Shown here: positions 5,954 to 46,562 of the stretch, in pieces
How positions within the stretch are numbered: the first letter of the stretch is position 1
How the letters are laid out: each line of letters begins with the position of its first letter
Assembly: GCA_902550225.1 (NCBI GenBank)
Contig: CACCYL010000003.1
Location: forward strand, 6,213 to 70,212
DNA: 64,000 bases
Direction: 5' to 3'
Source: an uncultured Alphaproteobacteria bacterium
GTDB lineage: Bacteria > Pseudomonadota > Alphaproteobacteria > Methylaequorales > Methylaequoraceae
Made by a program: the position numbers and the translations under genes
The notes under the pieces: generated by a model
Told to the model about the DNA's origin: nothing
The model's database searches: none
What the model saw: the letters and a program-made list of their open reading frames with translations, nothing else

Positions 5954-6951
<998 letters not shown>

Positions 6952-6957
6952 TTAAGT

Positions 6958-7606: not shown

Positions 7607-7740
7607 AACTTTATCTAATTCTCCAATTTTTACACTATACTTTATATTTGTTAAGAATTTTTTGTCAATTCATTACTTTAAGTAATTTTTGTTGTTAAAT
7701 TTATTTATTATGTTATTAAATTTACATATTGGTGATTCAT

Positions 7741-10399: not shown

Positions 10400-10411
10400 A
10401 TTTGATATCTA

Positions 10412-12141: not shown

Positions 12142-12231
12142 TTACTTTTATATTAATTTATTTGACTTAAAACGCATCATAACTATGTTGATTAAGTAGT
12201 CAAAATAATTTTATTTTGAAAGTAAAAGTTT

Positions 12232-14203: not shown

Positions 14204-14209
14204 AATTAT

Positions 14210-14899
14210 TTAGTGATAATAATAATTTTCAAGTTTTGTCATTACTTTATTTTTATTATCTTCTTTATTTATAAGAGGGAAGATCTTTACAATAATTTTA
14301 CCTTCTCTTTTATTAAACTTTTTATTAATCCAGTACTTACCAGAGTCAAGTTTGATTGGAAGAATTGGTAAATTGGCAAATTTATGAATGGCAAAAACAC
14401 CTGAATTTAATTTTATTCTCTCTCCAGGCTTTATTCTTGTTCCCTCTGGAAAAATGACAAAAATACAATTATTTTTTGAGATTAATTTTTTAACAGATTT
14501 TAGAAGAATCTTTAGTGAATCAAATGCTTTATCTCTTTTCACAAATATAAACCCAAGCTTTTTGAAATACTGAGAAAATATTGGAATTTTCTTTAATTCA
14601 TATTTAAGTATGAAAATTGAACCTGGAAAAAGAGAACCAAGAAAGAAAGTTTCCCATGCTGATTGATGGTTACTTGCTACAACAAAAGAACCAGATTTAG
14701 GAATATTTTCGCAACCTTTTATTTCATATTTTATTCCTAGAATTAATTTTGAGAGTTTTATTACAGATTTTGTCCAAAAAGTTGAGAGTATTACAACAAA
14801 TTTTCTTGTAAAGAAGCTGACAGGCGAGAAAATTAAGAAATAAAAAATTGTTCCAGTATAAAAAAAAATATAAAAGGTAAAGCTTCTTAAAAATCTCAT
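14210..14899 (-). CDS. plsC: 1-acyl-sn-glycerol-3-phosphate acyltransferase
   Basis: ASNHQSAWE (HX4-acidic box) and FPEGTR motifs. N-terminal TM anchor. Confidence 0.85.
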   Translation of the reverse strand: MRFLRSFTFYIFFYTGTIFYFLIFSPVSFFTRKFVVILSTFWTKSVIKLSKLILGIKYEIKGCENIPKSGSFVVASNHQSAWETFFLGSLFPGSIFILKYELKKIPIFSQYFKKLGFIFVKRDKAFDSLKILLKSVKKLISKNNCIFVIFPEGTRIKPGERIKLNSGVFAIHKFANLPILPIKLDSGKYWINKKFNKREGKIIVKIFPLINKEDNKNKVMTKLENYYYH

Positions 14900-15489
14900 A
14901 TTAAAGAAATTATAGTGTAAATGACTTTAAAATATTCAAGAAATATCAACTTAATGTGGAAAAAAAGGTTACTATCCATTTTAATTTTATCTTCTGCAGG
15001 GGAAAGAAAAATTTTTTTTTTTTCAACAATATTGTTAAATATTACATAACCTCTAGGAAGGTGGTAATACGAGCTTACCAAGATCAGATTTTCAATTTCT
15101 GTATTTTCAACTAACCAATTTTTTACTTCAAAAGCGTTCTCAAATGTGCTAGTAGCATTTTTATCATAAACCACACAACAGTTATGGTTGAATACTTGTC
15201 TTTCAATCTGTTGTTTTATTTCCAACTCGGACTCGTGAAATACACCCGAAATAAATAAAAAACTGCCATGGTTATTTTTGTACAGATCAATTCCTTTTTG
15301 AATTCTTCCTTTTCCACCTGTTAATACAATTATTGCTGAGTTATATTTACTTGATACTGAATCGGTAAAATAATATTTCTTCGGAAACGTATTAAAGATT
15401 AATATCAACCACCAAATCATAGTAATAATATTGATCGAAACTAAGAAAATTAAAATCTTTCTAAAATTTATCAAAAAATCTTTTCTCAA
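14896..15489 (-). CDS. DUF218 (YdcF/ElyC-like) envelope protein
   Basis: N-terminal TM helix, then IIVLTGGKGRIQKGIDLY ... FISGV, the DUF218 signature. Confidence 0.7.
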   Translation of the reverse strand: MRKDFLINFRKILIFLVSINIITMIWWLILIFNTFPKKYYFTDSVSSKYNSAIIVLTGGKGRIQKGIDLYKNNHGSFLFISGVFHESELEIKQQIERQVFNHNCCVVYDKNATSTFENAFEVKNWLVENTEIENLILVSSYYHLPRGYVIFNNIVEKKKIFLSPAEDKIKMDSNLFFHIKLIFLEYFKVIYTIISLI

Positions 15490-16360
15490 AAAAATAAAAC
15501 AAATAAGACATTAAAAAAAATAATAAAATAATTAAAAATGTCACAATAAATAGTATCAGTATAATGAACGTCGTTACATTTATTTCTATAAAAAATGAAG
15601 AATCAAAAAAATCAAAATTTACACCGAATAATTTCATTAACAGAGTACTTAATAGATAAACAAATATTGTACTAAGAATGGCACCTGGAACTATTTTTTT
15701 AATAATGCTCTGTGAAATATTTTTTGATAAATCAAAACTACTGGCTCCCATGATCTGCAACATCTCTAAAAACTTATAATTGCTGATTAGAGCAGCTTTG
15801 ACAATATTCATTACTAAAAAGGCAAACAGAGTAATTATTACAAGAAACATCATAAAAATTATAAGTTTAATTCTATTCACAAGAGATGAAATTTCAAAAA
15901 GCTGATCTTGATGAGAGTACTTTTCTATTAATCTATTTTCTGAAATACTTATCACAGACGCATATACTTCATCTAAAATAAATTTGTCATCTGTAACAAT
16001 TTGAAAAATGAATGGTAAGCTTAGTCCGGACATGTCGGAAAGATTTGTCAAGCCCAAACTCTCTTTAATAAGGTTACTTTCAATTACATAAAATTCAATC
16101 CTCTCCGACTTTGCTGAGAGGTAATTTGTAATTCTTTCTGTAACATCAAGTGGTATTTTTTTTTCATCAACCGAATTACTAATTATAAATGTAGTTTTTT
16201 TTGATTCTAACTCTAGCCAATTACTTGAAAACTTATAAAAATTAAAATAAACAGCTATATGTATTGTTATTAAACTTATAATAATGAATGATATACCGTG
16301 AAAAAATTTTTCTTCCTGTTTAAGAAGAGTCTTTTTTATAATTTCTTGAAAATATATCAT
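15461..16360 (-). CDS. ftsX: Cell division ABC transporter permease-like protein FtsX
   Basis: 299 aa. One TM, then a periplasmic domain, then three C-terminal TM helices. Directly downstream of the ftsE-like gene. Confidence 0.75.
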   Translation of the reverse strand: MIYFQEIIKKTLLKQEEKFFHGISFIIISLITIHIAVYFNFYKFSSNWLELESKKTTFIISNSVDEKKIPLDVTERITNYLSAKSERIEFYVIESNLIKESLGLTNLSDMSGLSLPFIFQIVTDDKFILDEVYASVISISENRLIEKYSHQDQLFEISSLVNRIKLIIFMMFLVIITLFAFLVMNIVKAALISNYKFLEMLQIMGASSFDLSKNISQSIIKKIVPGAILSTIFVYLLSTLLMKLFGVNFDFFDSSFFIEINVTTFIILILFIVTFLIILLFFLMSYLFYFFEKRFFDKF

Positions 16361-16366
16361 AAGCTT

Positions 16367-16999
16367 TCAATTCAATTCCAAGATTTTATGAGAACTTTTT
16401 ATATACAGGTCTTTACTTGAAGTAATTATAATAGTTGATCCTAATTTACTTAAAGACTCCAACAAGTAGAAAATCTTTCTTTTAGACACCTCATCTAAAA
16501 AAGTTTCAGGTTGGTCTGCAATTATAATGTTTGGATTATTAATCAGAGCTCTTGCAATTACTACTTTTTGTTTCTGACTATTTGATAAATTCATAATTTT
16601 TTCGTTTTTGATGTCATCCAAGTCTAACCACTCTGAAATCTCATTCATTCTCTGAGCAAAACTTGTTTTCAGGTTTTGAATTTGACTTGCAAGTTCAATG
16701 TTCTGGTAAACTGTAAAAAAGGGTATTAAATAATCGTTTTGAAGAATCACACCCATTTTTTTTCTATTTTCAATAATCTTTTTTTTTGACTCCTCTGTAA
16801 TTTTCTTTCCGTTTAAAAAAAGAGAACCTTTTGAAGGAAGTAACTTTAAATAAAATAATTTTAGTAGTAAAGATTTGCCCGTTGAATTCGACCCTTTTAT
16901 TACAAAAAAGTCTCCACGACAGATCTTGAGGTTAATATTTTCTATTTTCTTTTTTTTAGAAAAAATTGAGATATTATCTAATAAAAAAATTTCGTTCAT
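16367..16999 (-). CDS. ftsE: FtsE-like ABC ATPase subunit with degenerate catalytic motifs
   Basis: Walker A GSNSTGKS and a Q-loop are present. The signature reads LSNSQ, Walker B reads IIIADQPETFLD and the H-loop region reads IIITSSKD. See finding. Confidence 0.8.
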   Translation of the reverse strand: MNEIFLLDNISIFSKKKKIENINLKICRGDFFVIKGSNSTGKSLLLKLFYLKLLPSKGSLFLNGKKITEESKKKIIENRKKMGVILQNDYLIPFFTVYQNIELASQIQNLKTSFAQRMNEISEWLDLDDIKNEKIMNLSNSQKQKVVIARALINNPNIIIADQPETFLDEVSKRKIFYLLESLSKLGSTIIITSSKDLYIKSSHKILELN

Positions 17000-17001
17000 T
17001 A

Positions 17002-18231
17002 TTAATTGTCTGAAAGGATAATTTTCTTTTTTTTAATGAATATTTCTTTAGCTGGCTCTCTCAAATTATATTGTGATGCCATACAAGAACTATATGCTCC
17101 AGTCGAGCATATTACAACTAAATCGTCTGAGTTTAATCTATGAATTTTCATGTTTTTAATAAAAACATCGCTTGTTTCGCATATGGGTCCCACAATCTCG
17201 TAACTTTTCAAATTTGTTTGCTTCTTTTTTTTTACTGGAATAATTTTATGCTCTGCTCCATACAAAGCTGGTCTGATAAGGTTATCCATACCTGCATCTA
17301 TGATAACAAAATCTTTATTGTCGCCTGATTTTGTTCGAATTACTTTTGACAAGATTATTCCAGAAGAGCCCACCAAATATCTTCCTGGCTCAATTATTAT
17401 TTCTAAATCTAAATCTGAAAATAATTCATCTATTACTTGAGCATAAGATTTAATATCTAAAATTTTATTTTTATCGTTGTATTTTATACCGACACCCCCT
17501 CCTAGATCTAACGAAGACACTTCAAAACCTTCTCTTCTAAGTTTTAATATTTGCAATTTAATTTTTTTAAATGCTTTACTAAAAGGCTCTAGTAATACAA
17601 TTTGAGAACCAATGTGCATTGACAAACCTTTAATTTTAATAAATTTATTGCTTTTGAACTTTTTAAAAATCTCGAAGACTTTTTTATCTGATATACCAAA
17701 TTTATCTTCAGAGCGACCAGTTGATATTTTTTCATGGGTCTTTGCGTCCACATCAGGATTTATTCTTAAGCAAATATTTATTGTTCTATTTATTCTTTTG
17801 CATATGATTGCAATTTCTTCTAATTCTTCAATACTCTCAACATTGATCTGTTTAATATTTTTTTTTATGGCTATTTCAATTTCTTTACTGGTCTTTCCTA
17901 CACCGGAAAAAACAATTTTTTGATTACTAACCCCATTTTTTAAAGACTTTTGCAATTCGCCATTAGAAACAACATCTATCCCACATCCAAGATTTGATAA
18001 AATTTTAATAATGTTACTATTGAAATTTGCCTTTAAAGCATAACAAATTAGAGGTTTAACTTTTTTAAAAGCTTTTTGTAATTTTATAAAATTGTGTTCA
18101 ATTTGTGAAACTGAATAACAAAATAATGGTGTATCAAATTTTTCTCCCAAATTTTCTAATGAAATATCTTCCAAAAAAAGTTTATTTTTATTATAGGAAA
18201 GAAATTTGTTATATTCTGAAACTTTAATCAT
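17002..18231 (-). CDS. lysA: Diaminopimelate decarboxylase
   Basis: YALKAN (PLP lysine), DLGGGVGI, EPGR and CETSD motifs. Start set at MIKVSEY (18229-18231), which overlaps the small lipoprotein ORF stop (ATGATTAA). Confidence 0.93.
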   Translation of the reverse strand: MIKVSEYNKFLSYNKNKLFLEDISLENLGEKFDTPLFCYSVSQIEHNFIKLQKAFKKVKPLICYALKANFNSNIIKILSNLGCGIDVVSNGELQKSLKNGVSNQKIVFSGVGKTSKEIEIAIKKNIKQINVESIEELEEIAIICKRINRTINICLRINPDVDAKTHEKISTGRSEDKFGISDKKVFEIFKKFKSNKFIKIKGLSMHIGSQIVLLEPFSKAFKKIKLQILKLRREGFEVSSLDLGGGVGIKYNDKNKILDIKSYAQVIDELFSDLDLEIIIEPGRYLVGSSGIILSKVIRTKSGDNKDFVIIDAGMDNLIRPALYGAEHKIIPVKKKKQTNLKSYEIVGPICETSDVFIKNMKIHRLNSDDLVVICSTGAYSSCMASQYNLREPAKEIFIKKKKIILSDN

Positions 18232-33246: not shown

Positions 33247-33306
33247 TAAATAATTTTTCAGTTAATTTATTTTTCATATGATATAAAGTTTTAAATAATT
33301 TTTTTA

Positions 33307-33393
33307 GCCCCTATGGCGGAATTGGTAGACGCGACGGATTCAAAATCCGTTGAACTTCGGTTCATGTCCGTTCGAGTCGGACTAGGGGTACCA
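33307..33393 (+). tRNA. tRNA-Leu (anticodon CAA), CCA encoded
   Basis: Hand-folded cloverleaf: acceptor GCCCCTA/TAGGGGT, D arm GCG-GAATTGGTAGA-CGC, anticodon stem ACGGA/TCCGT with loop TTCAAAA, long variable arm GAAC-TTCG-GTTC, T arm GTCCG-TTCGAGT-CGGAC, discriminator A, CCA. Confidence 0.93.
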
Positions 33394-33416
33394 TTTTTTT
33401 AAAAATAGAGATAATT

Positions 33417-34441: not shown

Positions 34442-34480
34442 AGTGATAATTCTAAAAAGTGTGATAGTAAAGTGTGATAG
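34442..34480 (+). repeat. Phased direct repeats: AGTGATAA (34442), GTGTGATAG (34459-34467) and GTGTGATAG (34472-34480), flanked by A-runs
   Basis: Read directly. The two exact 9-mers start 13 bp apart. Homologous blocks occur at 37537-37558 and 46416-46437. Confidence 0.85.
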
Positions 34481-34527
34481 AAAAAACTTTATTTATTTAA
34501 ATCAATGACTTACATCCAAACGCAACT

Positions 34528-34584
34528 GATTCAAAATCCCTTGAACTTCGGTTCATGTCCGTTCGAGTCGGACTAGGGGTACCA
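34528..34584 (+). repeat. Copy of the 3' 57 nt of tRNA-Leu(CAA), from anticodon loop to CCA; att-like remnant 1
   Basis: 56/57 identical to 33337-33393. The single difference is C at 34540 against G at 33349. Confidence 0.9.
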
Positions 34585-34588
34585 TCAT

Positions 34589-35743
34589 TTAAAAGTTTCT
34601 GAACCTTTTCGGATTTAGCATCAAAATACTTGACAAAATCATGCAAGAAATGGCCAAAAAAATTGAGCTCTTGTAGTTATTTTCTAAATCAATGAGCATA
34701 CCGGAAACATACGGGCCAATTATTTGACCAATACTAAATGCAGTGGTCATAATAGCGACAGAAATATTAACATTCCCAATGAATCTTTTTTTCCCTTCAA
34801 CTAAAATTAATGCAACGGATCCAGGAACGCCTAAACCATATAGTAAACAAGCAAGAAAAAAGTAACTAACATTGTTCAAAAGTAAAAATGCAACACCTAG
34901 AGTAACTGTCGAACAAGAAAACAATAATAGCAAATCTGTGCTAATTTTTCTAGATAACCAATTCCAAACTAAAACCGAAGGAATGGCAAATAATCCTACT
35001 ATTATCCATGACATATACTGATAAAAAGAAATTTCAAATGAATTTATAGCTATTGCACTTATAAATGTTCCGAAAATTATATAACCAATGCCAAAGAAAA
35101 AATATCCCAATGAAATTACGATAAAATTTATTTGCAGTTTACTTTTAACTGAATTTCTATCTTCGTTTTTATAATCTAATTTCTGAGGGATAAAAATAAT
35201 AATGCCCGTACATAGTAATGCTCCAATCAAACCTACAAAAATCCATTGGTGAGTCCATAGAAGATCTACGGTTGAAATTATCCATACAACTGATGTTCCA
35301 ATAACTATGCCCAAACCAATCCCAGAAAAGTGATAAAGTTGTAAGGTTTTGTTTAAAGATTCTTTAAAGAAATTAAACATCAATGATATTGTGTATACAA
35401 AACTTAGCGCACTTGAAATCCCACATAAAAATCTTAACGTACAAAAAATCCTTAAATCTGTGGTAAATCCCATTAAACAAATTGTAACCACAGAAATAAT
35501 TGAAGAAAAAATAATCATTTTTCTGAAATTATTATATTTCCAAATAATTGGGATTATTGATCCAATTAGATAACCAAAATAGTTAAATGAGGATATCATC
35601 CCCATATTTGTTGAATTAAGATATAATTCATTTTGCATATTGGGCAATATAGGTGTGTATATAAATCTTCCAAAACCGATAGCTATTAAGGTCGAAAAAA
35701 TACCTGCCATAATAACATTAAAATTTACCTTTGAAAATTTCAT
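34589..35743 (-). CDS. MFS transporter, YbfB/YjiJ (DUF1228) type
   Basis: 12 TM helices. N-terminal GFGRFIYTPILPNM motif typical of YbfB-like MFS proteins. Confidence 0.72.
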   Translation of the reverse strand: MKFSKVNFNVIMAGIFSTLIAIGFGRFIYTPILPNMQNELYLNSTNMGMISSFNYFGYLIGSIIPIIWKYNNFRKMIIFSSIISVVTICLMGFTTDLRIFCTLRFLCGISSALSFVYTISLMFNFFKESLNKTLQLYHFSGIGLGIVIGTSVVWIISTVDLLWTHQWIFVGLIGALLCTGIIIFIPQKLDYKNEDRNSVKSKLQINFIVISLGYFFFGIGYIIFGTFISAIAINSFEISFYQYMSWIIVGLFAIPSVLVWNWLSRKISTDLLLLFSCSTVTLGVAFLLLNNVSYFFLACLLYGLGVPGSVALILVEGKKRFIGNVNISVAIMTTAFSIGQIIGPYVSGMLIDLENNYKSSIFLAISCMILSSILMLNPKRFRNF

Positions 35744-37258: not shown

Positions 37259-37332
37259 GATGGCTGAGGGGATTTGAACTCCTTACATCTAGTACTGCAA
37301 ACTAGCGCTCTAACAAACTGAGCTTCAGTTAG
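37259..37332 (-). tRNA. tRNA-Cys(GCA)-like sequence with mismatched acceptor stem (pseudo-tRNA or 5'-truncated att remnant)
   Basis: The reverse complement folds as D arm GCTC-AGTTTGTTA-GAGC, anticodon stem CTAGT/ACTAG with loop TTGCAGT, and T arm AGGAG-TTCAAAT-CCCCT (1 mismatch). The acceptor CTAACTG vs CAGCCAT pairs at only 4 of 7 positions. No CCA. Confidence 0.5.
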
Positions 37333-37536
37333 TATTTTGAATAAATGCTCTACATTCATAGGGATATTCTTGGAAAAAATATGAAGAAATAGATTTCCTA
37401 GTCCTTAATGACTACATCACGATAAAGGAAGGTAACAAAAGAACTGACAACTTAATTAAAGAGGAATATAGATGTGGTTTTTATTATATCTTTGGTGGTC
37501 ATTGCTATACCGAACAATCTAAATAATTTGAAAAAA

Positions 37537-37558
37537 GTGTGATAGTAAAATGTGATAG
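37537..37558 (+). repeat. Phased direct repeats GTGTGATAG (37537-37545) and aTGTGATAG (37550-37558)
   Basis: Same 13-bp phasing and A-run flanks as at 34459-34480. No clear tRNA-Leu fragment follows. Confidence 0.8.
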
Positions 37559-37617
37559 AAAAAATTAAAAATTTTATTTTGGGTAATTCTTATGTTATTC
37601 AAATTAATTTTTTGAAT

Positions 37618-38631
37618 TTATTGATTTAATCCTTTTCTATATTTTTCATCTTTTGAATTTAATAACTTTTGTATTTCTTTTTTTGAAATGGTGCATATTT
37701 TTTCAACATTTTTTTGCCTTATGATTATTTCATAAAAACATTGTAACTGTTCAAGTTTGTTTGTATCAAATGATTTTTTTATATAAATTCCCTCATTTTT
37801 TATAAACACTAATTCTTGCGAATCTTTCTGTTTCTTGTAATTTTCGAAAAATTGAGACAAAGAATCATACGTATTTGGTCGAGATCCCAAGAATACTGTT
37901 TGATCAGGAAAGAGATTCCACTTGTTATTTAAACACCAAAATAATTTATTATCAAAAACTAATTGCATTAATTTTAAGTCATTAATTAGATTATGATCTT
38001 TGGTTATTTTTTTTTTAAAATCTTTCTCTATTTTTATTGATTTTTTGGGAGTTGTTTTTAAAACTTGTAACAATTTAAAAAGATCTAAACTTATTTCATT
38101 TAAACTATCTCCTGAAATAATAATCCCATGGTTTTTGAGTAAAAAAATATTAATTTTTTTTTTTTCTTTTATCGTTTTATCAAAAATTTCTGTTGCTAAT
38201 TCTTTGCCTGGCATTTTGTAATCAATGCACAAGTAATTTTTAGTATAATTAATTCTTTCAGATAAATCTATTTCTGCGCTATTCCTTACTAAATATGAAA
38301 TTGCTTCAACGGCATGTAGATGAATTACAAATTTATGTTTTATTATACCATGCATTAAGGTCTCCATTGATGGTTTTAAATTTTTAAATTCATTATTCTT
38401 ATTTTCCAAGTTTCCTCCTTGATAAAAATTAGCATTTAATTTTTCTAGACTAACTTTTACAAAAATATTTTTGTGCAAAGCATCTTTTAAAGAAAGTCCC
38501 GAGGCTTTAATTAATAATTCATCGTTATGTTTATAAGATACATTACCGCCTATACCCTGAACTAAAAGTATATTTTTGCCTACTTTGTCACAAAATTGTG
38601 ACAATTTTTTTATTTGTTTACTTTGGTTCAT
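37618..38631 (-). CDS. Class II aldolase/adducin-domain protein
   Basis: QGIGGNVSYK and KPSMETLMH..VIHLHA motifs, resembling the N-terminal aldolase half of bifunctional aldolase/SDR proteins and the AraD/MtnB fold. Confidence 0.6.
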   Translation of the reverse strand: MNQSKQIKKLSQFCDKVGKNILLVQGIGGNVSYKHNDELLIKASGLSLKDALHKNIFVKVSLEKLNANFYQGGNLENKNNEFKNLKPSMETLMHGIIKHKFVIHLHAVEAISYLVRNSAEIDLSERINYTKNYLCIDYKMPGKELATEIFDKTIKEKKKINIFLLKNHGIIISGDSLNEISLDLFKLLQVLKTTPKKSIKIEKDFKKKITKDHNLINDLKLMQLVFDNKLFWCLNNKWNLFPDQTVFLGSRPNTYDSLSQFFENYKKQKDSQELVFIKNEGIYIKKSFDTNKLEQLQCFYEIIIRQKNVEKICTISKKEIQKLLNSKDEKYRKGLNQ

Positions 38632-39373
38632 TTTTCTTTAGTTTTGCTATGAGCAACCTCAAATCATTGAAATTTGAAAAGGAAAAGTCAGGAGAATTTT
38701 CGCCTTTACCTTTAACTGCCCCTTTGTGTATTTTTTGAAATGTTACAGCATTGATCGAATCTTTTGATCCTTTTATATCTGCTATTGGATCATCTCCAAT
38801 CATCCAAATTTTATCTCCTTTTGGTTGTAATTTTTCAAGTGCTAATTTAAATGATGAAAAATGAGGTTTATCAAAACCTGATTCTTCAGACGTGACAACA
38901 TAATCAAAAAACTTATCTAAATCAAAGTATACCATTTTTCTGAACTGTATTTGCGCTGTGAGGTCAGTAACAATAGCAAGGGGGATCTCGAGCAATCTTA
39001 AGTCTTCGAGTAATTCTTTAACACCTTTAAATAACAAAGCATTATTTAGAAATGTTCTCCAATAAGTTTGCTCAAACTCCAGAGTCATGAGAATCTGACT
39101 TCCAAGACCTAAAATTTCGAAAACTTTATTAATATACAAAAGTCTACTGTGCGACGATGCTGTCCCCTCCAAGTAAGATTTTACAATCTTCCTAGCCTCT
39201 ATAAATTTTTTATCAAATAATTTTGAACTAATGTTAAATTTTTCCATAAACTTTTTTTTAATAGCACTCATCGCTTTTTCATGGGCAGGTGAATAAGGAT
39301 ATAACGTGTTATCTGTGTCAAATAAAATTGCATCAGGAAGTTTTAAAATATTTATATTAGAATGTTTTTTCAT
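38618..39373 (-). CDS. HAD-superfamily hydrolase (phosphatase)
   Basis: DAILFDTDNTLY (DxDxT motif I), VTD (motif II) and IGDDPIADI (motif IV). Start set at MKKHSN (39371-39373), a TAATG overlap with the upstream gene. Confidence 0.75.
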   Translation of the reverse strand: MKKHSNINILKLPDAILFDTDNTLYPYSPAHEKAMSAIKKKFMEKFNISSKLFDKKFIEARKIVKSYLEGTASSHSRLLYINKVFEILGLGSQILMTLEFEQTYWRTFLNNALLFKGVKELLEDLRLLEIPLAIVTDLTAQIQFRKMVYFDLDKFFDYVVTSEESGFDKPHFSSFKLALEKLQPKGDKIWMIGDDPIADIKGSKDSINAVTFQKIHKGAVKGKGENSPDFSFSNFNDLRLLIAKLKKNEPK

Positions 39374-41391
39374 TATACCATTTTTTTTGTCAGTACCTGA
39401 TCTATATGAACCAAAGTAATAAGCTGAATTAAACCTTGCACCCCCCCTTCCCATTTAGGTTTAAAGTCAAGAAACTGAATTGTTTTTGGGCAGACAAATT
39501 TAGCAGACAATTCTATATCTTTTTCAGATGGCTCTCCTTCTATTGTTAATATGAATTGATCAGAATCATTTAGTTCTTTCATTTCTACATTGAGTCCACA
39601 CAAACCAATTAAAGCTCTTGACAAAGATACCTCACTTAACCAATTTCGTGAAGTTATAACCAATTTGTATTTCAATTTTGAAAAATCTATCTTATCATTA
39701 AAGTTTGCGTTAACTGGATGAAGAGAAATTATCAAATCTGCTTTTTTTGCTTGAGGCTTTATATAAATCTCTGAGTCTTTTTCTCTTCTTTTTAGACTTA
39801 CCTTCACCTCATTCACAGTGTGTCCTCGTTTACTTGAATCACGCCTTATCTTCAAAAATTTTCTCATTTTTTCGTCCATTTCAATAAAGATTGAGAGATC
39901 ATAACATTTCCTTAATATTGGGAGGTAGAGTGCGTGAAGTCCACTTACTAAAATTATATCATTGCTCTTAATTTTTTCAGGTAAACTCATTCTACCTGTT
40001 TCATGATCGTATTTTTTTTTAAAAATATTTTTACCATTTATCAAATTTATTATGTCAAGAGTTAATTGCTGTAAATTATTTGCCAGTGGATTAAGATGAG
40101 TTAAAATTTTCCACATTGGTTTTTTCCTATCCCACAAATGATAATCATCTCCAGAAATTGAAGTTACAGAATTTTTACCAAATAACTTAATTATTAAACT
40201 AACTAAATTATCTTTTCCTGAACCAGAATCACCAGAAATTCCAAGTACGAAAGGTTTTCTACTTAATTTAAAAAAATCATTTTGGTAAAAAGAATATTTG
40301 CCTATTCTCATTAATATTACAATTCCGATTGTAATTAGTGCCGTATTCAACCAAGAATAAAGTAGATTGAAATAAATAAAATCTTGATTTCCAATTTTTA
40401 GTAAATTAATTACTAAAAAAAGAACAGAAAACATCACTGAAAGTGGAATTGAAAACTTATCGTCAGTAGACTGACTTTGATAAGAAACTAAAGATAAAAT
40501 AGTCCACACATACCATCCTGGAGGAGAAGGTGTTAAAATGGTTATAAGCAGAAAGGTTCCTCCCACAATATTCATGAATAAGATAAAATTAATACGATTT
40601 ACCTGCACAACTATGTAAAATACTAAAAAATATGCTAGAGGAAATATAAAAATTTGAGCTTGTTCTTTAAAATCTAAAGCAAGGCTATAAATATTGGAAA
40701 CCTCAGGATTTTTGTAAATCATAGAGATTCCTGAAGGTGTAAATATTACGAAGGGAAGTAATAATACAATAGACCCCAAAAAAATACCCTTTAAAAAATC
40801 ATGTAATCTATGTTTGTAAACAGAATTGTTTATTATAAAAATAAAAAAGAATGGTATGACCAGAATCATGCTTATTTTGATTGAAATACTTAAGATACAA
40901 AATATTCCAGAAGCAAAAAAATTTTTTAAATTTAAAGATTGTATTGCCAATAATATAAATAGCATTGGTATGATATCGTTGTATCCAAGAAGATATACAG
41001 ACGTAAATATAATTGGTGAAAACCAGTAAATAAATAAAATGAAATTTTTATTTTGTCCTGTTAATTTTTTAATTACTAATAAAAATAAGATATCTGCAGA
41101 TAATATTGCTGCATGATAGCCAATAATCATTGGTAGATCTAAAAGCTTTATTATGAATATGAAGGGTAAAAAAAATATCCACATCCCGTATCCATATGGA
41201 AAAGCTGCTATACTTCCATTATTTTCTAACCATGTTTGCCAAGGATCTAATGAAATTTGATTTATACTTAATTCTAAAAATGGAAGGTAAAAATCTTCAA
41301 TGAGTGATTGTTCAAAGTAAATTATTAAAAAAATTTTTAAAATAAGACCAATGAAAAAAAAAGGACTTTTGATTATATTATAATCAAGCAT
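39373..41391 (-). CDS. Fusion protein: GT-C-like polytopic membrane domain plus phosphoribulokinase/uridine-kinase-family P-loop kinase domain plus about 110-aa C-terminal domain
   Basis: The first ~380 aa are polytopic (about 10 hydrophobic segments) with an early loop DPWQTWLENNGSIAAFPYGYG. Then GISGDSGSGKDN (P-loop), GDDYHLWDR, LVSGLHALY, FLKIRRDSSKRGHT and YIKPQAKKADLII, a string of motifs colinear with PRK. Start set at MLDYN. Confidence 0.6.
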   Translation of the reverse strand: MLDYNIIKSPFFFIGLILKIFLIIYFEQSLIEDFYLPFLELSINQISLDPWQTWLENNGSIAAFPYGYGMWIFFLPFIFIIKLLDLPMIIGYHAAILSADILFLLVIKKLTGQNKNFILFIYWFSPIIFTSVYLLGYNDIIPMLFILLAIQSLNLKNFFASGIFCILSISIKISMILVIPFFFIFIINNSVYKHRLHDFLKGIFLGSIVLLLPFVIFTPSGISMIYKNPEVSNIYSLALDFKEQAQIFIFPLAYFLVFYIVVQVNRINFILFMNIVGGTFLLITILTPSPPGWYVWTILSLVSYQSQSTDDKFSIPLSVMFSVLFLVINLLKIGNQDFIYFNLLYSWLNTALITIGIVILMRIGKYSFYQNDFFKLSRKPFVLGISGDSGSGKDNLVSLIIKLFGKNSVTSISGDDYHLWDRKKPMWKILTHLNPLANNLQQLTLDIINLINGKNIFKKKYDHETGRMSLPEKIKSNDIILVSGLHALYLPILRKCYDLSIFIEMDEKMRKFLKIRRDSSKRGHTVNEVKVSLKRREKDSEIYIKPQAKKADLIISLHPVNANFNDKIDFSKLKYKLVITSRNWLSEVSLSRALIGLCGLNVEMKELNDSDQFILTIEGEPSEKDIELSAKFVCPKTIQFLDFKPKWEGGVQGLIQLITLVHIDQVLTKKMV

Positions 41392-41393
41392 TT

Positions 41394-41984
41394 TTAACAC
41401 TCCCACTTTTCTGGAAATTTCGTGCATACTGCATCAAGCTTGATATTCATTGCTTCTAATTTTTTTTTTATCGCTAATATTTTTGATTTGTCATTATGAG
41501 GGTGTAGTTCAGGAGAGGCTAAACAAATTTTAAAGTTTAATTTTTTTAGATTCAAGAATTCCTCCTCTGTTAAAACTAAATTGTTAAATACATCTAACCA
41601 AATCCAAGAAACCAAGTTGCTCACCTTTTCAGCAGTAATTATAGATTCATAATCAGAAACACGAACAGCAATTTTTTTTTCTCCCTCCTTTGACTTTTTA
41701 ATTATGAAAGGAAATGATTGATCCAAAAAAAAATAATCTTTTATATCATGTTTTAATAAGAGGAATTTTATTTTATCTTCAAGTCCTTCTTCTTTAACAT
41801 TTAAAATTAACAAATTATGGTTGTAAAATCTTATCCATTTGTCAAAATTTTCGCCATTTTCATAAGGTTCGTGATTTAAAATTAAGTTTCCATTATAGGT
41901 CCTTATATCAAGTTCTACACCATATTTAGTGTCTACCTTTTTTAATTCAGCGATACTATTACATCTATGAATTACTATTTTCAT
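41394..41984 (-). CDS. PLC-like/GDPD-like phosphodiesterase family protein (tentative)
   Basis: VIHRCNS...VELDIR...LILNHEP follows the HR...ExD...H(D/E) pattern of GDPD TIM barrels. Start set at MKIVIHR. Confidence 0.45.
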   Translation of the reverse strand: MKIVIHRCNSIAELKKVDTKYGVELDIRTYNGNLILNHEPYENGENFDKWIRFYNHNLLILNVKEEGLEDKIKFLLLKHDIKDYFFLDQSFPFIIKKSKEGEKKIAVRVSDYESIITAEKVSNLVSWIWLDVFNNLVLTEEEFLNLKKLNFKICLASPELHPHNDKSKILAIKKKLEAMNIKLDAVCTKFPEKWEC

Positions 41985-42675
41985 TACTATTTTTTTTAAG
42001 TTTGAAACTGTATTGTAAAGTTCTTTTAATAAATTTAGCTTTAGAAAAAAAACCAAAATTCCAGCTAGAAGATCCAAATTTTCTTTTTTTAAAATAAGTT
42101 GGAAACCTTATTATTTTTTGTTTTTTTATGTGAGCAAAGTAAAAAACATATAAATCTAATGAAAAATCCAAAGGAGGATTTGTAAACTTGTTATAAAAAT
42201 CTCTCGAAAACATTGTAGGCTGAGCGTTAATATCATTTAAGAGTTTTCTGAATAAAATTGTTTCTAAAACACTCATTCCAAATGTAAAAAAATTATCTTG
42301 AAATGAACGACCGTATCTCAATCCTTTTACAAATATATTTTGACCATTTTTTTCTATAATACTAATAGCTTTTAATATATCATTAGGATCAGTTTGCAAA
42401 TCAGCGTGAGTCCAACCAATATAATCTCCCTTGGTGTGTTTTAATCCAAAAAGTATTCCATATCCATAACCTTTATTTTTATCAATTTTAAGAATTTGAT
42501 AATTTTTTTTTTCTTTTAGTGATTTTTTAAGAGTTTTATATGTATGGTCTGTAGATCCATTGTCGACAAATAAGATTTCTATATTTTTTTTTGAAAGCAA
42601 ATGAACGCATGAATCAATAAGTGAGTTTATAGACTTTTCTTCATTAAAGCACGGAATCACAATTGAATATTTCAT
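41965..42675 (-). CDS. Family 2 glycosyltransferase, polyprenyl-phosphate sugar synthase type (GtrB/ArnC-like)
   Basis: YSIVIPCFNEE...VDNGSTD...HADLQ (DxD-equivalent) motifs. Short soluble GT2 next to gtrA. Confidence 0.82.
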   Translation of the reverse strand: MKYSIVIPCFNEEKSINSLIDSCVHLLSKKNIEILFVDNGSTDHTYKTLKKSLKEKKNYQILKIDKNKGYGYGILFGLKHTKGDYIGWTHADLQTDPNDILKAISIIEKNGQNIFVKGLRYGRSFQDNFFTFGMSVLETILFRKLLNDINAQPTMFSRDFYNKFTNPPLDFSLDLYVFYFAHIKKQKIIRFPTYFKKRKFGSSSWNFGFFSKAKFIKRTLQYSFKLKKNSNENSNS

Positions 42676-42678
42676 AAT

Positions 42679-43074
42679 CTAAGAATTTTTAAAAACATAG
42701 TACTTCATACCAAAAAAATTTAAAATAGCAGAGCAACCAGTAGAAATAAAGAATGATAGTATAAATGTTCTTTGAAAATTATTAAAATAATGATTTATCG
42801 AACTGTTAATTATAACATTCATACACATTGAAAAAAAATATAGAATGTAAAACCTAACAAAACTCTTTTTTACATTCTTTTTGTAACGGAAAGTAATTGT
42901 TTTATTAGCAAAATAAGAAAAAAGTGTTCCAGTGAAAAAACCTACGGCTTTTGCAAAATGAATATTAAAATAATTGAGGATGAATAAATAACTACAGTAA
43001 TCTAAAAAAACAGTAAAAAAGCCAATTGGTAAAAATAAAAAAATTTGTTTTTTAACTTTACTTGTTCTTTTCAT
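42679..43074 (-). CDS. GtrA-family membrane protein (putative polyprenyl-P-sugar flippase)
   Basis: About 130 aa with 4 TM helices and FLDYCSYLFIL...FSYFANKTITF motifs. Start set at MKRTSKV. Confidence 0.8.
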   Translation of the reverse strand: MKRTSKVKKQIFLFLPIGFFTVFLDYCSYLFILNYFNIHFAKAVGFFTGTLFSYFANKTITFRYKKNVKKSFVRFYILYFFSMCMNVIINSSINHYFNNFQRTFILSFFISTGCSAILNFFGMKYYVFKNS

Positions 43075-43081
43075 TTTGTTT

Positions 43082-44683
43082 TCAATTATAGAAATCATAG
43101 TCATTTGATATTTTGTACTCGTGACCTTTCCATTTATTAAAACAAGATTGCCAATATTCAAAAGTTTTAAGTTCATTTGGAGTTCCCCACGAAACATAAC
43201 TCTCAACCTCAAATAATCTACATTTTAAACCCATTTGTATAGCATCATTTAAACATGAATCTACATAGTATTCTCCATTTACTTTACCTTGCCTTTTTTT
43301 TAATGAACTTGACGATTTAATAAAATATTTCATTTTTTTAAATGTAAATGTACCTAAAACTATAGGATAATTTTCAAATTTATTTTTTTTTTTTACGAAA
43401 ACTTTATCTACCTTATCACCAATCATCTTAAGCCAACCAAACATTTTAGGCTGTTTCATTGCTTCAGGGTAGTTTCTTATACCCCAAACAATAATATCTG
43501 TATCTTTATCATTTAATAAACTTATATATTTTTCATTATTATAAATCAGTTTACTATCACATGATGTAATAGTTATGGGTGAATTAATCAGTTCAGGTTT
43601 TTTTTTTAGAAGATAATTGATACCTATATCAATAGTACATAATTGACCACCTGTGTAACCTGAAATTAAAGCTGTTTCTGAATTTTTAAAAATTTTATTA
43701 ACTTTTTCTTGGATTTTTTGAGAGCCTTTCATTGTATTTCTTATCAAAAATAAAGTTTTTTCAAATTCTGGCAAAGCCTTTGAAGCTTGTATCACCATTT
43801 CTTTACCTGACACTTTGATCAGTGGTTTAGGAGTTCTATACTTTTCTTTTAAAAATCTTTTGCCAATTCCTGCCATTGGTATTATCAGCTCACCCTTTGT
43901 CTTAATTTTTTTTCTTTTTTTTACTAAACTAGAGAATATCCTGGACCAATATATATATTCATGAAGATCCTCAGGTGTTCCCCATTGCATAAAATATTTG
44001 ATGGGATAAATCATAATTTTTTTCTTTTTAGAAATTAGATTTTTATAACTCAGACTCACATAATATTCACCGTTAGTAATCTGATTGGATTTTTTTTGTT
44101 CTTTAAAAGCATGGATCATAGAATTACTGTCAGAAAAATAATAAGTACCTGTAGATGCATATTCTTCAATTCGATTTAGGGTAAAGCTTTTTTTTTCTCT
44201 AATATCTAAAATTTTTCTTTTATTCTCTTTGATATATGCATAATAATTTTTTCCAAGTGAATGGGGGTGAAAACCCTTGTATGAGGGAATAGCTCCTTCA
44301 CAATCTTCGTTTCGTACGAATTTTTTAAAATCATTCCAATTCCAATAACACGTAAAATCACAATAATTCACAATAGTTTGAACTCCTTTTTTTATTTCTG
44401 TTTCAGCTTGCAAAACTGTGTGAACCGGTCCAAGTTTGTGAGGATTAATTCCAATAATTTTTCCGCTTGGACAAAATTTTTTAATAACATTTTCTACATT
44501 GAATTTTTTGTTTTTTAAATGATCTTTATTACAAATAAATAAAAAATTCTTTTCTCCAGGAAACATATCAATAATGTAGGATATAATTGGCCTTCCATTA
44601 ACGTCAATCAGAAACTTTGGAATTTGATACCCATAATTTTTAAATCTATTACCAAACCCAGACATTGGAATTATAATTTGCAT
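43082..44683 (-). CDS. Tandem-domain sugar-phosphate nucleotidyltransferase-like protein
   Basis: Two internal repeats, each opening with the NTP-transferase G-loop: IIIPMSGFGNRF...PKFLIDVNGRPII and LIIPMAGIGKRF...PKPLIKVSGKEMV. Both halves end in WGTPE/WGTPN. Confidence 0.6.
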   Translation of the reverse strand: MQIIIPMSGFGNRFKNYGYQIPKFLIDVNGRPIISYIIDMFPGEKNFLFICNKDHLKNKKFNVENVIKKFCPSGKIIGINPHKLGPVHTVLQAETEIKKGVQTIVNYCDFTCYWNWNDFKKFVRNEDCEGAIPSYKGFHPHSLGKNYYAYIKENKRKILDIREKKSFTLNRIEEYASTGTYYFSDSNSMIHAFKEQKKSNQITNGEYYVSLSYKNLISKKKKIMIYPIKYFMQWGTPEDLHEYIYWSRIFSSLVKKRKKIKTKGELIIPMAGIGKRFLKEKYRTPKPLIKVSGKEMVIQASKALPEFEKTLFLIRNTMKGSQKIQEKVNKIFKNSETALISGYTGGQLCTIDIGINYLLKKKPELINSPITITSCDSKLIYNNEKYISLLNDKDTDIIVWGIRNYPEAMKQPKMFGWLKMIGDKVDKVFVKKKNKFENYPIVLGTFTFKKMKYFIKSSSSLKKRQGKVNGEYYVDSCLNDAIQMGLKCRLFEVESYVSWGTPNELKTFEYWQSCFNKWKGHEYKISNDYDFYN

Positions 44684-44685
44684 GG

Positions 44686-46281
44686 TTATTCTTGACTTTT
44701 TTTGATTAAAATAAAAATACCCCTTTGGATCTTAGAAACTGAAAGTATTTGGTAACCTTCATTTTTAATTTCTAAGGATAAACAATTTAAATTACATTCT
44801 GAAAAATATTGGCCAAACAAAGCAATTAATAAATGACTATTTTTTTCTTTTGGCCACAAAAAAGCTGAACCATAATTATCTTTCGAATAATTAAAACTTC
44901 TTAATCTTAAACATCCATTTTTATTAAAAGATTCAGTTAAAGTATTATCAAATTTATCATAGGCATAAGCGTTATTACCATAAAAATGAAAAGCTTCAGC
45001 ACTAAATGTTTCACCTCCTTCGTACAAATTAATATCGCCTAAATTTAATTCTAAGATTTTTTCCTTTACTTTGTTATTTACATCTAATTGACGGTTAAAG
45101 TATTGTTTTTGAGCATTTATTTCTTTCGAAGAAAAAAAAATAATACCTACTAAAAATAATGGAAATATAATTTTACTTTTAACATTGAGTTTGTTTTTAA
45201 AACTAAAATAGCTTAAAAGAAAAATAAAGATACACATTCCAGATGAAATATGTCTCAAACCAACGGCTCCAGATTCAATTGAAAGATTAATAGTTATTAC
45301 CTTTACCAAAAAAATAGCACTTAGACCAAAAATCAATAAGCTGGGAAAATCTTTTTTTTTTTTTTTTGAAATTATTTGTGAAGAAAATTTTATGGAAAGA
45401 GAAATTAAATTTATAATCAGTAATGTTAGGAATATAATAAATATTGAAAATGATATATTTGAATATTCAAAAAATTTAAAAAAAAAATCTGAAAGATTTT
45501 CAAATTCACTTTTAAGATGAGAAGATGGTGCATTAAAAAATAAATTTTTTATCAAACCTTGAGTCTCACCAAGAGCGGAAATACAAAAAATAATAAAGCT
45601 AGAAATACAATAAAATATAAATTTCAATAAATATTCTTGTCGTTTATTTTGTAATTCAAAACAAATCAAAGTTACAATTCCAAACATACTAATAATAATT
45701 ATTGGTAAAATAGATAATTTTGTTGAAATTCCAGCACCATAAAAGATTGCCAACACTAAAAAATCTTTCAAAGAAATTAAATGAGGTTTATTAATTAATG
45801 AAAAAGTCTTGGTTAATATTACTACACATAAAGGAATTACAAATGAATCAGCACCATAACATGTTAAATAATACCAAAATGGAGGCCAAAAAATCAAAGC
45901 TGTCAAAGAGAGAAAAAATTTTATTTCTTCATTAAATTCTTTAGTCTTAGTATAAAAATAAAACAGTGAAAAAGAATAAGCCAATGCAACTACGTAGTAT
46001 GATACATTAAATATGGTTTGACTTGATAATATAGGATCATTAAAAAAAATTATAATAAATGAGAGCAAAAAAGTTGGGACTATCCCAGGATGATTTACAA
46101 CCGTTTTATCAAAACTCAAAAATTCTCGAAAAGATAAAGCTTTATAAAAGTAGTCTGCTTGTAAATCTGTTTGTCTAATAAAAAAAATAGAGAAATCAGA
46201 ATTTACAACATATGTAACGTAGGTTGTGAAAATAGTTATAAATAATAGAAGAATTTTATATTTTGAAAAAATTGGAAGCAT
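44686..46281 (-). CDS. Polytopic membrane protein, GT-C-like glycosyltransferase or polymerase (tentative)
   Basis: About 11-13 TM helices followed by a roughly 150-aa soluble C-terminal domain. First gene of the island operon. Confidence 0.45.
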   Translation of the reverse strand: MLPIFSKYKILLLFITIFTTYVTYVVNSDFSIFFIRQTDLQADYFYKALSFREFLSFDKTVVNHPGIVPTFLLSFIIIFFNDPILSSQTIFNVSYYVVALAYSFSLFYFYTKTKEFNEEIKFFLSLTALIFWPPFWYYLTCYGADSFVIPLCVVILTKTFSLINKPHLISLKDFLVLAIFYGAGISTKLSILPIIIISMFGIVTLICFELQNKRQEYLLKFIFYCISSFIIFCISALGETQGLIKNLFFNAPSSHLKSEFENLSDFFFKFFEYSNISFSIFIIFLTLLIINLISLSIKFSSQIISKKKKKDFPSLLIFGLSAIFLVKVITINLSIESGAVGLRHISSGMCIFIFLLSYFSFKNKLNVKSKIIFPLFLVGIIFFSSKEINAQKQYFNRQLDVNNKVKEKILELNLGDINLYEGGETFSAEAFHFYGNNAYAYDKFDNTLTESFNKNGCLRLRSFNYSKDNYGSAFLWPKEKNSHLLIALFGQYFSECNLNCLSLEIKNEGYQILSVSKIQRGIFILIKKSQE

Positions 46282-46415
46282 TTAAAACTCTTAAACTATC
46301 ATCTGATGTTAGAAACAGAAACTTTATCTAAAAAGCTGAAACAAAATTAGTTTAGCCTTAACAATTATGGGGCGCAAGAGGAATCTTAGTTGTTTATTAA
46401 AGATTTTAAAAAAAA

Positions 46416-46437
46416 GTGTGATAACTTAGTGTTATAG
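46416..46437 (+). repeat. Phased direct repeats GTGTGATAA (46416-46424) and GTGTTATAG (46429-46437)
   Basis: Same 13-bp phasing. The distance from the second repeat to the tRNA fragment is identical to the 34.4-kb unit. Confidence 0.8.
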
Positions 46438-46484
46438 TAAAATTTATCTGAATTTAAATCAACAACTTACTCACCAACTCAACT

Positions 46485-46541
46485 GATTCAAAATCCCTTG
46501 AACTTCGGTTCATGTCCGTTCGAGCCGGACTAGCGGTACGA
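46485..46541 (+). repeat. Copy of the 3' 57 nt of tRNA-Leu(CAA); att-like remnant 2
   Basis: 53/57 identical to 33337-33393, with differences at 46497, 46525, 46534 and 46540. It shares the C at the 33349-equivalent position with the 34.5-kb copy. Confidence 0.88.
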
Positions 46542-46562
46542 TTGTTTAAAAAACAAAAATAA

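Follow-up and report, generated by a model that had tools for sequence, protein, structure and literature searches.

Gtr systems for O-antigen glucosylation, known from Shigella, Salmonella and serotype-converting phages, combine the small membrane protein GtrA, a GT2 glycosyltransferase that loads polyprenyl phosphate and a polytopic periplasmic transferase. The same three kinds of protein are encoded in an eight-gene operon identified in a 64,000-nucleotide stretch of DNA from an uncultured alphaproteobacterium (contig CACCYL010000003.1 of assembly GCA_902550225.1, forward-strand positions 6,213 to 70,212), from now on referred to as the window. Its genes are numbered P1 to P8 in the order of transcription (Table 1), with P2 to P8 representing a conserved seven-gene cassette. 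In a pattern that recalls the type-specific gene of gtr operons, a variable polytopic gene usually accompanies the conserved part of the cassette, although it is absent from the phage copy described below. Both gtr operons and the cassette are carried by temperate phages beside an O-acetyltransferase gene (Acyl_transf_3 in the case of the cassette). Gtr systems, however, consist of three genes and use housekeeping UDP-glucose, whereas the cassette adds five conserved enzymes for a dedicated donor. Further, its GT2 protein lacks the C-terminal membrane helices of GtrB and its conserved transferase is a predicted GT-C domain fused to a kinase. Because of this dedicated donor synthesis and the different transferase, the cassette falls outside the Gtr family as strictly defined. 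Nor does it belong to the teichoic-type systems.

Dedicated nucleotide-sugar synthesis followed by GT2 loading and GT-C transfer is also found in the Arn system (ArnC, ArnE-F and ArnT), which attaches 4-amino-4-deoxy-L-arabinose to lipid A, and in the mycobacterial PpgS/Rv3632/Rv3779 system. PpgS and its small GtrA-like partner resemble the split P4/P3 pair of the cassette. The sugar chemistry of both systems is entirely different, however, and neither contains a phosphoribulokinase (PRK), HAD phosphatase, aldolase-fold protein or phospholipase C (PLC)-like enzyme. A precedent for the succession of kinase, HAD phosphatase and nucleotidyltransferase is provided by ADP-heptose and GDP-heptose synthesis, where proximal phosphorylation by HldE or HddA is followed by distal dephosphorylation by the HAD protein GmhB and nucleotide addition by HldE or HddC. 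In contrast to these pathways, the substrate of the cassette would be a ketopentose, its proximal phosphate would be non-anomeric, the kinase families differ, and a PLC-like protein as well as a second nucleotidyltransferase domain are present.

The haloarchaeal non-carboxylating pentose bisphosphate pathway likewise has a HAD protein of the same subfamily encoded beside a class II aldolase-fold gene, and it passes through ribulose-1,5-bisphosphate (RuBP) as well as ribulose-1-phosphate (Ru1P), intermediates that we propose for the cassette too (PMC9700705). That pathway is catabolic, derives RuBP from nucleosides via ribose-1,5-bisphosphate (R15P) isomerase and ends in dihydroxyacetone phosphate (DHAP) and glycolaldehyde (PMC9700705), whereas in the cassette PRK would be the source of RuBP, and nucleotidyltransferases and glycosyltransferases are the enzymes to which the module is linked. 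Activation of a ketose via a primary, non-anomeric phosphate is known from CDP-6-D-fructose, CDP-glucitol and CDP-mannitol synthesis (Campylobacter jejuni HS5.18/HS5.17 and Streptococcus pneumoniae Mnp1/Mnp2), and the CDP-6-D-fructose formed there by a nucleotidyltransferase acting on a primary ketose phosphate serves as a second precedent; these pathways continue with a reductase step and deliver a polyol phosphate (PMC10918830), while the cassette has no reductase. By analogy, the cassette may be seen as a Gtr- or Arn-like system joined to a heptose-style sequence of kinase, HAD phosphatase and nucleotidyltransferase.

Literature searches on the gene combination in 8 million full-text papers returned no description of the cassette, and no known pathway takes in the whole set, in line with the first-pass annotation, made from the letters of the window, to which no characterized system of this composition was known. 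The cassette is thus apparently undescribed and holds what looks like an undescribed sugar-activation pathway.

A conserved seven-gene cassette with one variable slot

A scan of one genome per Genome Taxonomy Database (GTDB) species yielded 156 confirmed relatives, 80 loci of which were kept. Searching 83 loci from other taxa with the window proteins by tblastn, where many of the missing cases are contig ends, located P6 in 83 loci, P7 in 80, P5 in 79, P8 in 76, P4 in 73, P2 in 71 and P3 in 57. The order P2-P3-P4-P5-P6-P7-P8 is kept in most of these loci, so the arrangement is not due to chance, and the kinase is fused to the GT-C domain in every single one. Full-length P6 homologues of about 45% identity are found in Yersinia, Pseudomonas, Burkholderia, Vibrio, Erwinia and Polynucleobacter, with the Yersinia and Pseudomonas neighborhoods encoding the same genes in the same order. 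The kept loci span alpha-, beta- and gammaproteobacteria, Geobacter, Myxococcales, Planctomycetia, Vicinamibacterales, Nitrospirota and one Bacteroidetes metagenome-assembled genome. The cassette of seven genes is widespread and horizontally mobile. The first-pass annotation had treated all eight genes as one unit and looked to SAR11 for its distribution. P2 to P8 do co-occur as a conserved core, which is present in at least 156 species and is not confined to SAR11, while P1 falls outside this core, being lineage-specific and replaced by unrelated proteins elsewhere.

P1 has no match in Pfam or NCBIfam and only three homologues among 5.8 billion proteins, profile query included. Its AlphaFold model, based on a four-sequence alignment, has a predicted local distance difference test score (pLDDT) of 39.6 and is unusable, so that the GT-C-like character given to P1 in the first-pass annotation is at most putative. 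In other taxa the P1 slot is occupied by unrelated polytopic proteins of 540-650 amino acids (aa), usually encoded after P8 or between P7 and P8. BLAST sorts these slot proteins into at least eight clusters that are not related to one another, leaving some singletons. They match no Pfam family, and hhalign comparisons between clusters gave one weak pair only. The P1 homologue of the closest SAR11-like relative is encoded at a distance of four genes from the cassette. By its pattern, the slot resembles the type-specific gene of gtr operons, and the variable polytopic protein, P1 in the window, probably adapts the cassette to the local acceptor.

Two observations on public data may be added. In Pseudomonas piscis MC042 the cassette occurs on two scaffolds (L033 and L076) with identical tblastn coordinates and identities, representing either a real duplication or a duplicated scaffold. 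Public records call the fused GT-C::PRK protein "uridine kinase" and several other cassette members "hypothetical protein", names that are likely to mislead automated pathway reconstruction.

Table 1 Operon genes, P6 domains and bounding repeats (window coordinates).
Feature	Coordinates	Strand	Description
P1	44686..46281	-	531 aa polytopic membrane protein, ~10 hydrophobic segments and C-terminal soluble part; variable slot
P2	43082..44683	-	533 aa tandem sugar-phosphate nucleotidyltransferase, two NTP_transferase-type domains
P3	42679..43074	-	~131 aa GtrA-family small membrane protein; open reading frame (ORF) reaches back to 43212
P4	41965..42675	-	236 aa GT2 polyprenyl-phosphate glycosyltransferase catalytic domain, without transmembrane helices
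P5	41394..41984	-	196 aa small protein resembling PLC/glycerophosphodiester phosphodiesterase (GDPD)
P6, N-terminal domain	40273..41391	-	predicted GT-C-fold membrane domain, ~12 helices
P6, C-terminal domain	39373..40272	-	PRK-type kinase
P7	38618..39373	-	251 aa HAD-IA phosphatase
P8	37618..38631	-	337 aa class II aldolase/epimerase-fold protein, conserved C-terminal extension of ~150 aa
33-nt repeat block (AAAAAGTGTGATAGTAAAATGTGATAGAAAAAA)	37532..37564		3' side of operon; 97% identical to copy 34454-34486
141-nt repeat	46411..46551		5' side of operon; degenerate 33-nt block, then remnant of tRNA-Leu region

Genomic contexts

The genomic contexts of the cassette point to O-antigen and to mobility. 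In Pseudomonas, it adjoins wbpL/wbpM-type genes. On an Azospirillum brasilense plasmid (NZ_CP032350.1, 7664-16840) it is rearranged, with the aldolase-fold gene coming first, and adjoins wzm/wzt-type ABC transporter genes, gmd, a GDP-fucose synthase gene and several glycosyltransferase and methyltransferase genes, thus lying inside an O-polysaccharide cluster of the ABC-transporter type. A 33 kb Escherichia coli plasmid (NZ_CP145712.1) carries the full eight-gene cassette between two IS26 copies (4986-17325). The E. coli hosts are a human stool isolate with a chromosomal O35-type O-antigen cluster and a bullfrog isolate.

A temperate phage of 71 kb (IMG/VR UViG 3300034110_001068) encodes the seven-gene cassette at 7235-14412 without an eighth polytopic gene. 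There, the cassette is located between a CI-like repressor (HTH and Peptidase_S24 domains) and Acyl_transf_3, followed by Mu Gp48 and baseplate J genes, a position that corresponds to the classic slot for lysogenic conversion. Among isolated phages (INPHARED), only uridine-kinase-like partial matches were obtained. With copies on plasmids, in a phage and in a tRNA-linked island, and with hosts as different as SAR11-like marine bacteria, Yersinia, Pseudomonas and E. coli, the cassette is likely a serotype-conversion or phage-receptor-masking element.

Lipid-carrier and membrane components

P3 matches the GtrA family (PF04138, 2.5e-12) over ORF residues 60-174, and its orthologues are 130-147 aa long. 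P4 is a GT2 protein (PF00535, 2e-28) whose nearest solved structures are ArnC, DPMS and GtrB, with ArnC being the closest, and whose NCBIfam matches are PgfS, ArnC and PpgS. The membrane helices missing from P4 may be supplied by P3 as a separate protein; the Pfam family to which P3 belongs is named GtrA/DPMS transmembrane domain.

The membrane half of P6 has no Pfam match in the window protein. Some orthologues show faint matches to ALG3, and one relative matches Pfam GT87, the PimE family, at 1e-9. The AlphaFold model of residues 13-385 (pLDDT 91.3) was compared with the PDB using Foldseek, and the top ten matches are all GT-C proteins with probabilities of 0.97-1.0 and TM-scores of 0.42-0.60: ALG6, GPI mannosyltransferase I, PimE (two entries), ALG9 (two entries) and PIG-U (four entries). 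All of them use polyprenyl-phosphate sugars except PIG-U, which is non-catalytic. About 90% of the P6 orthologues retain D61 of the ORF (LDPW), while D112 and N150-D151 are invariant among them. Based on this model, the conserved membrane transferase of the cassette appears to be the GT-C-fold domain fused to the kinase. The Gtr-like lipid-carrier logic recognized in the first-pass annotation is hence borne out by a GT2 protein closest to ArnC, DPMS and GtrB, by GtrA and by the predicted GT-C fold.

Soluble enzymes

The kinase domain of P6 matches PF00485 at 4e-32. In NCBIfam, it reaches 192.3 bits on the model PRK07429 (NF005655; cut-off 236) and 81 bits on the uridine kinase model. In the PDB, the cyanobacterial PRK 6hzk is matched at 3e-37, whereas matches to uridine kinases are limited to about 1e-9 to 1e-10. 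By sequence, PRK is a much nearer relative of the domain than uridine kinase is. Its P-loop (GDSGxGK) and residues R434, Y473, H475, R529/D530 and R534 show no variation in the family and have identical counterparts in the alignment with 6hzk. In plant PRK, the catalytic residues and those holding the phosphate of ribulose-5-phosphate are Arg64, Tyr103, His105, Arg159/Asp160 and Arg164 in Chlamydomonas numbering (bioRxiv 10.1101/422709), with which R434, Y473, H475, R529/D530 and R534 of P6 align, so the ribulose-5-phosphate site is retained.

P7 is the most conserved protein of the cassette (53-66% identity) and matches the HAD family PF00702 at 9e-21. It also matches NF053830, ribulose-1,5-bisphosphate 5-phosphatase, at 2e-46 with 158 bits, the equivalog cut-off being 330. 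This haloarchaeal RuBP 5-phosphatase is the best NCBIfam match for all 24 P7 orthologues searched, with a best value of 2.9e-54. The haloarchaeal enzyme is strictly RuBP-specific, forms Ru1P and shares an operon with a class II Ru1P aldolase (PMC9700705).

P8 matches class II aldolases (PF00596, 2e-17). Across 25 sequences, there is no variation in the zinc triad H104, H106 and H168, in the catalytic E90 or in the residues of the phosphate site (G28-G29-N30-S32, S44-G45 and S88). Its nearest solved structures are 3m4r, FucA and MtnB, while the NCBIfam matches, which include the aldolase domains of RhaD-type bifunctional enzymes, all score far under their cut-offs. The C-terminal extension has a characterized counterpart only in the aldolase halves of RhaD-type fusions. 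Ketose-1-phosphates are substrates of class II aldolase-fold enzymes, and Ru1P is of the type that is natural to them. The pentulose-phosphate branch that was first read from the window is supported by these three proteins, all with conserved active-site residues; a loss of such residues in the kinase and the aldolase-fold protein would have spoken against it. A methionine-salvage pair of the MtnB/MtnC type was considered as well and rejected, as the HAD protein matches RuBP phosphatase rather than enolase-phosphatase and both MtnA and MtnK are missing.

P2 has RmlA/GlmU-type NCBIfam matches at 1e-12 and weak Pfam matches. Both of its domains retain the PM(S/A)GxGxRF..KPL and WGTP(E/N)D motifs; the nearest solved structure is a nucleotidyltransferase of the 6-deoxy-manno-heptose pathway for domain 1 and 4evw for domain 2.

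P5 has no match in Pfam, NCBIfam or PDB sequence and profile searches. Its family comprises 1,428 representative clusters, and H6, R7, E24, D26 and H38, forming an HR..ExD..H pattern, are invariant in 22 sequences. An hhalign alignment to E. coli UgpQ brings together the HR, ExD and HD motifs of glycerophosphodiesterases, albeit weakly (E 0.002, probability 13%). The only independent support for this assignment is the naming of P5 orthologues as phosphatidylinositol-specific PLC (PI-PLC)/GDPD family proteins by the NCBI pipeline PGAP. Elsewhere, P5 occurs in fusions with the tandem nucleotidyltransferase (at either end), GT2, GT87-PRK or GT61, and because of these partners it is placed next to the nucleotide-activation and transfer steps. 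Fusions that join cassette steps are HAD::aldolase, PLC-like::tandem nucleotidyltransferase, GT2::PLC-like, PLC-like::GT87::PRK and PLC-like::GT61.

A soluble module in giant viruses

Look-ups of fusion proteins and a P5-profile scan of viral contigs led to 23 viral loci, most of them labeled GVMAG, on contigs of up to 407 kb. Together with three metagenome loci, these were analyzed by tblastn (26 loci, L089-L114). About 17 giant-virus contigs encode PRK, the tandem nucleotidyltransferase, P5 and P8, and all but one of them also HAD, while tblastn detected no GtrA, GT2 or GT-C in any of them. HAD is often fused to the aldolase-fold protein and P5 to the nucleotidyltransferase, and P5 is also found fused to GT61. 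In three giant-virus contigs whose gene tables were inspected, GT61 or GT92 glycosyltransferases are encoded nearby. The other viral and metagenome loci are mostly short contigs with only P5 and the nucleotidyltransferase.

The occurrence of the soluble module alone in giant viruses implies that the five soluble enzymes represent a self-contained donor-synthesis pathway. Such a pathway could feed either cytoplasmic transferases or a lipid-carrier route. The giant-virus module connects bacterial and viral glycan chemistry.

Proposed function and alternatives

We propose, with moderate confidence, that the mobile cassette makes a nucleotide-activated ketopentose and uses it to modify a surface glycan, most likely the O-antigen. 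The observations behind this proposal are the order and domain content of the genes, the conservation of active sites, the GT-C fold of the model, the fusions, the distribution and the genomic contexts, whereas we infer which sugar is made, all substrates and products on the way to it, the acceptor, and in which order the nucleotidyltransferase and the PLC-like protein act. In the cytoplasm, the PRK domain of P6 would phosphorylate ribulose-5-phosphate at C1 to give RuBP, from which P7 would take off the 5-phosphate, yielding Ru1P. P8 would then remodel Ru1P, our preferred reading being 3- or 4-epimerization to xylulose-1-phosphate. Epimerization at C4 through retro-aldol and aldol reactions, as in AraD, would give L-xylulose-1-phosphate, while epimerization at C3 through an MtnB-like enediolate would give D-xylulose-1-phosphate. 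P2 and P5 would turn the pentulose-1-phosphate product into an activated donor. At the membrane, the soluble GT2 protein P4 would load the sugar onto polyprenyl phosphate with the help of GtrA (P3), and once the lipid-linked sugar has arrived at the periplasmic face, the kinase-fused GT-C domain would transfer it to the glycan. In this way, a kinase of the Calvin-cycle type and an only recently discovered RuBP phosphatase would have been recruited by the cassette to glycan synthesis.

A more specific and more tentative version, which we consider possible but doubtful, is that the five soluble enzymes are the missing pathway to activated xylulofuranose, common to bacteria, a temperate phage and giant viruses. 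Here, one P2 domain would activate the C1 phosphate of xylulose-1-phosphate, the PLC-like P5 would cyclize the product to a 1,2-cyclic phosphate, thereby shifting the phosphate to the anomeric C2, and the second P2 domain would then form a true glycosyl donor. Formation of cyclic phosphates is characteristic of PI-PLC-type enzymes; cyclization of a nucleoside diphosphate (NDP)-1-pentulose to the 1,2-cyclic phosphate is speculation. Xylulofuranose, a rare residue in glycans, occurs in the O-antigen of Yersinia enterocolitica O:5,27. It is known from the E. coli O95 and O97 O-antigens, where genes for "NDP-Xulf" are not in the clusters and the donor is hypothetical (PMC7685785), and from Y. enterocolitica O:10, where a D-rhamnan formed via an ABC-transporter pathway carries L-xylulofuranose branches and no xylulose biosynthesis genes are reported in the O-antigen cluster (PMC11380512). 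Further examples are the C. jejuni RM1221 capsule and Devosia (PMC8707391) as well as the capsid N-glycans of chloroviruses MT325 and TN603, which are reported to contain xylulofuranose of undefined configuration (PMC9614988). The occurrence of the module in Yersinia (including proteins labeled Y. enterocolitica), E. coli and giant viruses overlaps suggestively with this list. For the activation of neutral ketose residues such as xylulofuranose in glycan synthesis, the cassette provides a concrete, testable candidate.

Several points weigh against these proposals. The phosphate of Ru1P is located on C1 and not on the anomeric C2, so the product of a plain nucleotidyltransferase would be no glycosyl donor for GT2, and the roles given to the second nucleotidyltransferase domain and the PLC-like protein in making an anomeric leaving group are guesses. 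P8 resembles true aldolases (RhaD-type N-domains and FucA) and could cleave Ru1P instead of epimerizing it. The PRK and HAD scores fall under the curated family cut-offs of NCBI, and the P6 kinase and P7 are best described as close relatives, judged by sequence, and not as certified members of the PRK and RuBP 5-phosphatase families. The first periplasmic loop of GT-C proteins usually holds a catalytic Asp, but the residue at this place in P6, D61, is replaced by Asn in some orthologues from Pseudomonas. Finally, the one typed E. coli host has an O35 (wzx/wzy) cluster and not the xylulose-bearing O95 or O97, and a blastn search, which would miss a diverged module, detected the cassette in only 2 of 5,426 complete E. 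coli genomes. The O35 typing neither supports nor refutes xylulose, as a plasmid-borne cassette may modify any O-antigen.

Among the alternatives, attachment of a pentulose- or pentitol-phosphate unit by a phosphodiester in teichoic-acid-like fashion fares best, yet we regard it as unlikely. An NDP-1-pentulose or NDP-pentitol would act as phospho-donor and P5 would handle the phosphodiester, which would suit its phosphodiesterase-type catalytic pattern, and Ru1P plus nucleoside triphosphate would naturally give an NDP-1-linked ketose comparable to CDP-6-fructose and CDP-ribitol. The conserved cassette, however, encodes no reductase, making a polyol product unlikely, and the eight window proteins gave no LicD, TagF or CDP-alcohol phosphotransferase match in Pfam or NCBIfam. 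Its conserved transferases are a GT2 protein with ArnC, DPMS and GtrB as nearest structures and a predicted GT-C protein, and viral versions fuse P5 to GT61 glycosyltransferases. The polyol-phosphate chemistry suggested by the first-pass annotation consequently finds no support in the conserved cassette, which has neither a reductase nor a phosphotransferase of these types, nor in the viral module, which pairs with GT61-type enzymes.

It is quite improbable that P8 is a true Ru1P aldolase and that PRK, HAD and P8 together supply glycolaldehyde or DHAP, with the activated unit being something else. In the haloarchaeal operon, exactly the same partners are found, a HAD RuBP phosphatase and a class II aldolase, and the best family matches of P8 include RhaD-type aldolase domains and FucA, but DHAP is abundant, a dedicated route to it makes little sense, and no member of the cassette would use glycolaldehyde. 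Further, the conserved 150-aa extension of P8 is absent from FucA-type Ru1P aldolases, and HAD::aldolase fusions are found in glycan-building viral loci near nucleotidyltransferases and glycosyltransferases.

An aldopentofuranose donor (arabinofuranose or ribofuranose) on polyprenyl phosphate, made by an alternative to the route to decaprenyl-phosphate-arabinose based on phosphoribosyl pyrophosphate, is very unlikely. GT-C enzymes using polyprenyl-phosphate-linked pentofuranoses are known in mycobacteria and in Pseudomonas pilin glycosylation, and ketose-1-phosphates and aldose-1-phosphates can be interconverted, as by MtnA and R15P isomerase. Such isomerization is however carried out by eIF2B-like enzymes and not by the class II aldolase fold, and Pfam and NCBIfam searches detect no eIF2B-like enzyme in the cassette. 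The idea that an ordinary Gtr-type glucosylation set merely neighbors a pentose-phosphate salvage set is hardly credible, for although GtrA, GT2 and GT-C alone would make a working Gtr-like system, all seven genes are found as one set, identically ordered, in different phyla as well as on a plasmid and in a phage, the kinase::GT-C fusion is universal among the 83 loci, and GT2::P5 and P5::GT87::PRK fusions bridge both sets.

Operon layout and the tRNA-Leu island

The operon consists of eight consecutive minus-strand ORFs running from 46281 down to 37618. All of them were confirmed in the ORF listing, in agreement with the tight packing noted in the initial reading of the window, and domain searches back most of the gene labels given there. 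Start codons were picked by homology, placing the starts of P3, P5, P6 and P7 at 43074, 41984, 41391 (Met13 of the ORF) and 39373. Genes are separated by gaps of 2 nt (P1/P2), 7 nt (P2/P3), 3 nt (P3/P4) and 2 nt (P5/P6) or overlap by 20 nt (P4/P5), 1 nt (P6/P7) and 14 nt (P7/P8). The same gene overlaps are found in a relative of 83% identity (L084). As the DNA is AT-rich, a scan for promoters and terminators gave no useful information (52 sites, where 62 would be expected). The window has a GC content of about 28%, and its closest relatives come from Tara surface-ocean samples; a SAR11 origin is plausible. In L084 (GCA_902614205.1, SAR11-like; 11466-12486), gene calling splits the aldolase-fold gene into parts of 201 and 115 aa, whereas two sister contigs carry an intact gene of 339 aa; the split represents a frameshift or an assembly error.

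The operon is the third of three repeat-separated cassettes beside tRNA-Leu(CAA). A 33-nt block starting AAAAAGTGTGATAG is found at positions 34454 and 37532 and, in degenerate form (GTGTGATAAC), at 46411-46443. The copies at 34454 and 46411 continue as a 141-nt repeat, with 46411-46551 being 83% identical to 34454-34594 and 64% identical to 33263-33403, the latter containing the tRNA-Leu(CAA) gene at 33307-33393. The segment bounded by the repeats, 37564-46411, is exactly filled by the operon, in agreement with the repeat-bounded island segment noted in the first-pass annotation. The first segment of the island encodes an FkbM/RfbT-like methyltransferase and the second an MFS_4 transporter and two unknown secreted proteins. 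No integrase was found by Pfam scan among five island and five flanking proteins. Overall, the island looks like the result of serial insertion at a tRNA site. A tRNA-like fragment at 37264-37328 (minus strand), for which ARAGORN makes no call but which scores 39 bits in Rfam over model positions 5-66, sits just outside the 3' repeat of the operon.

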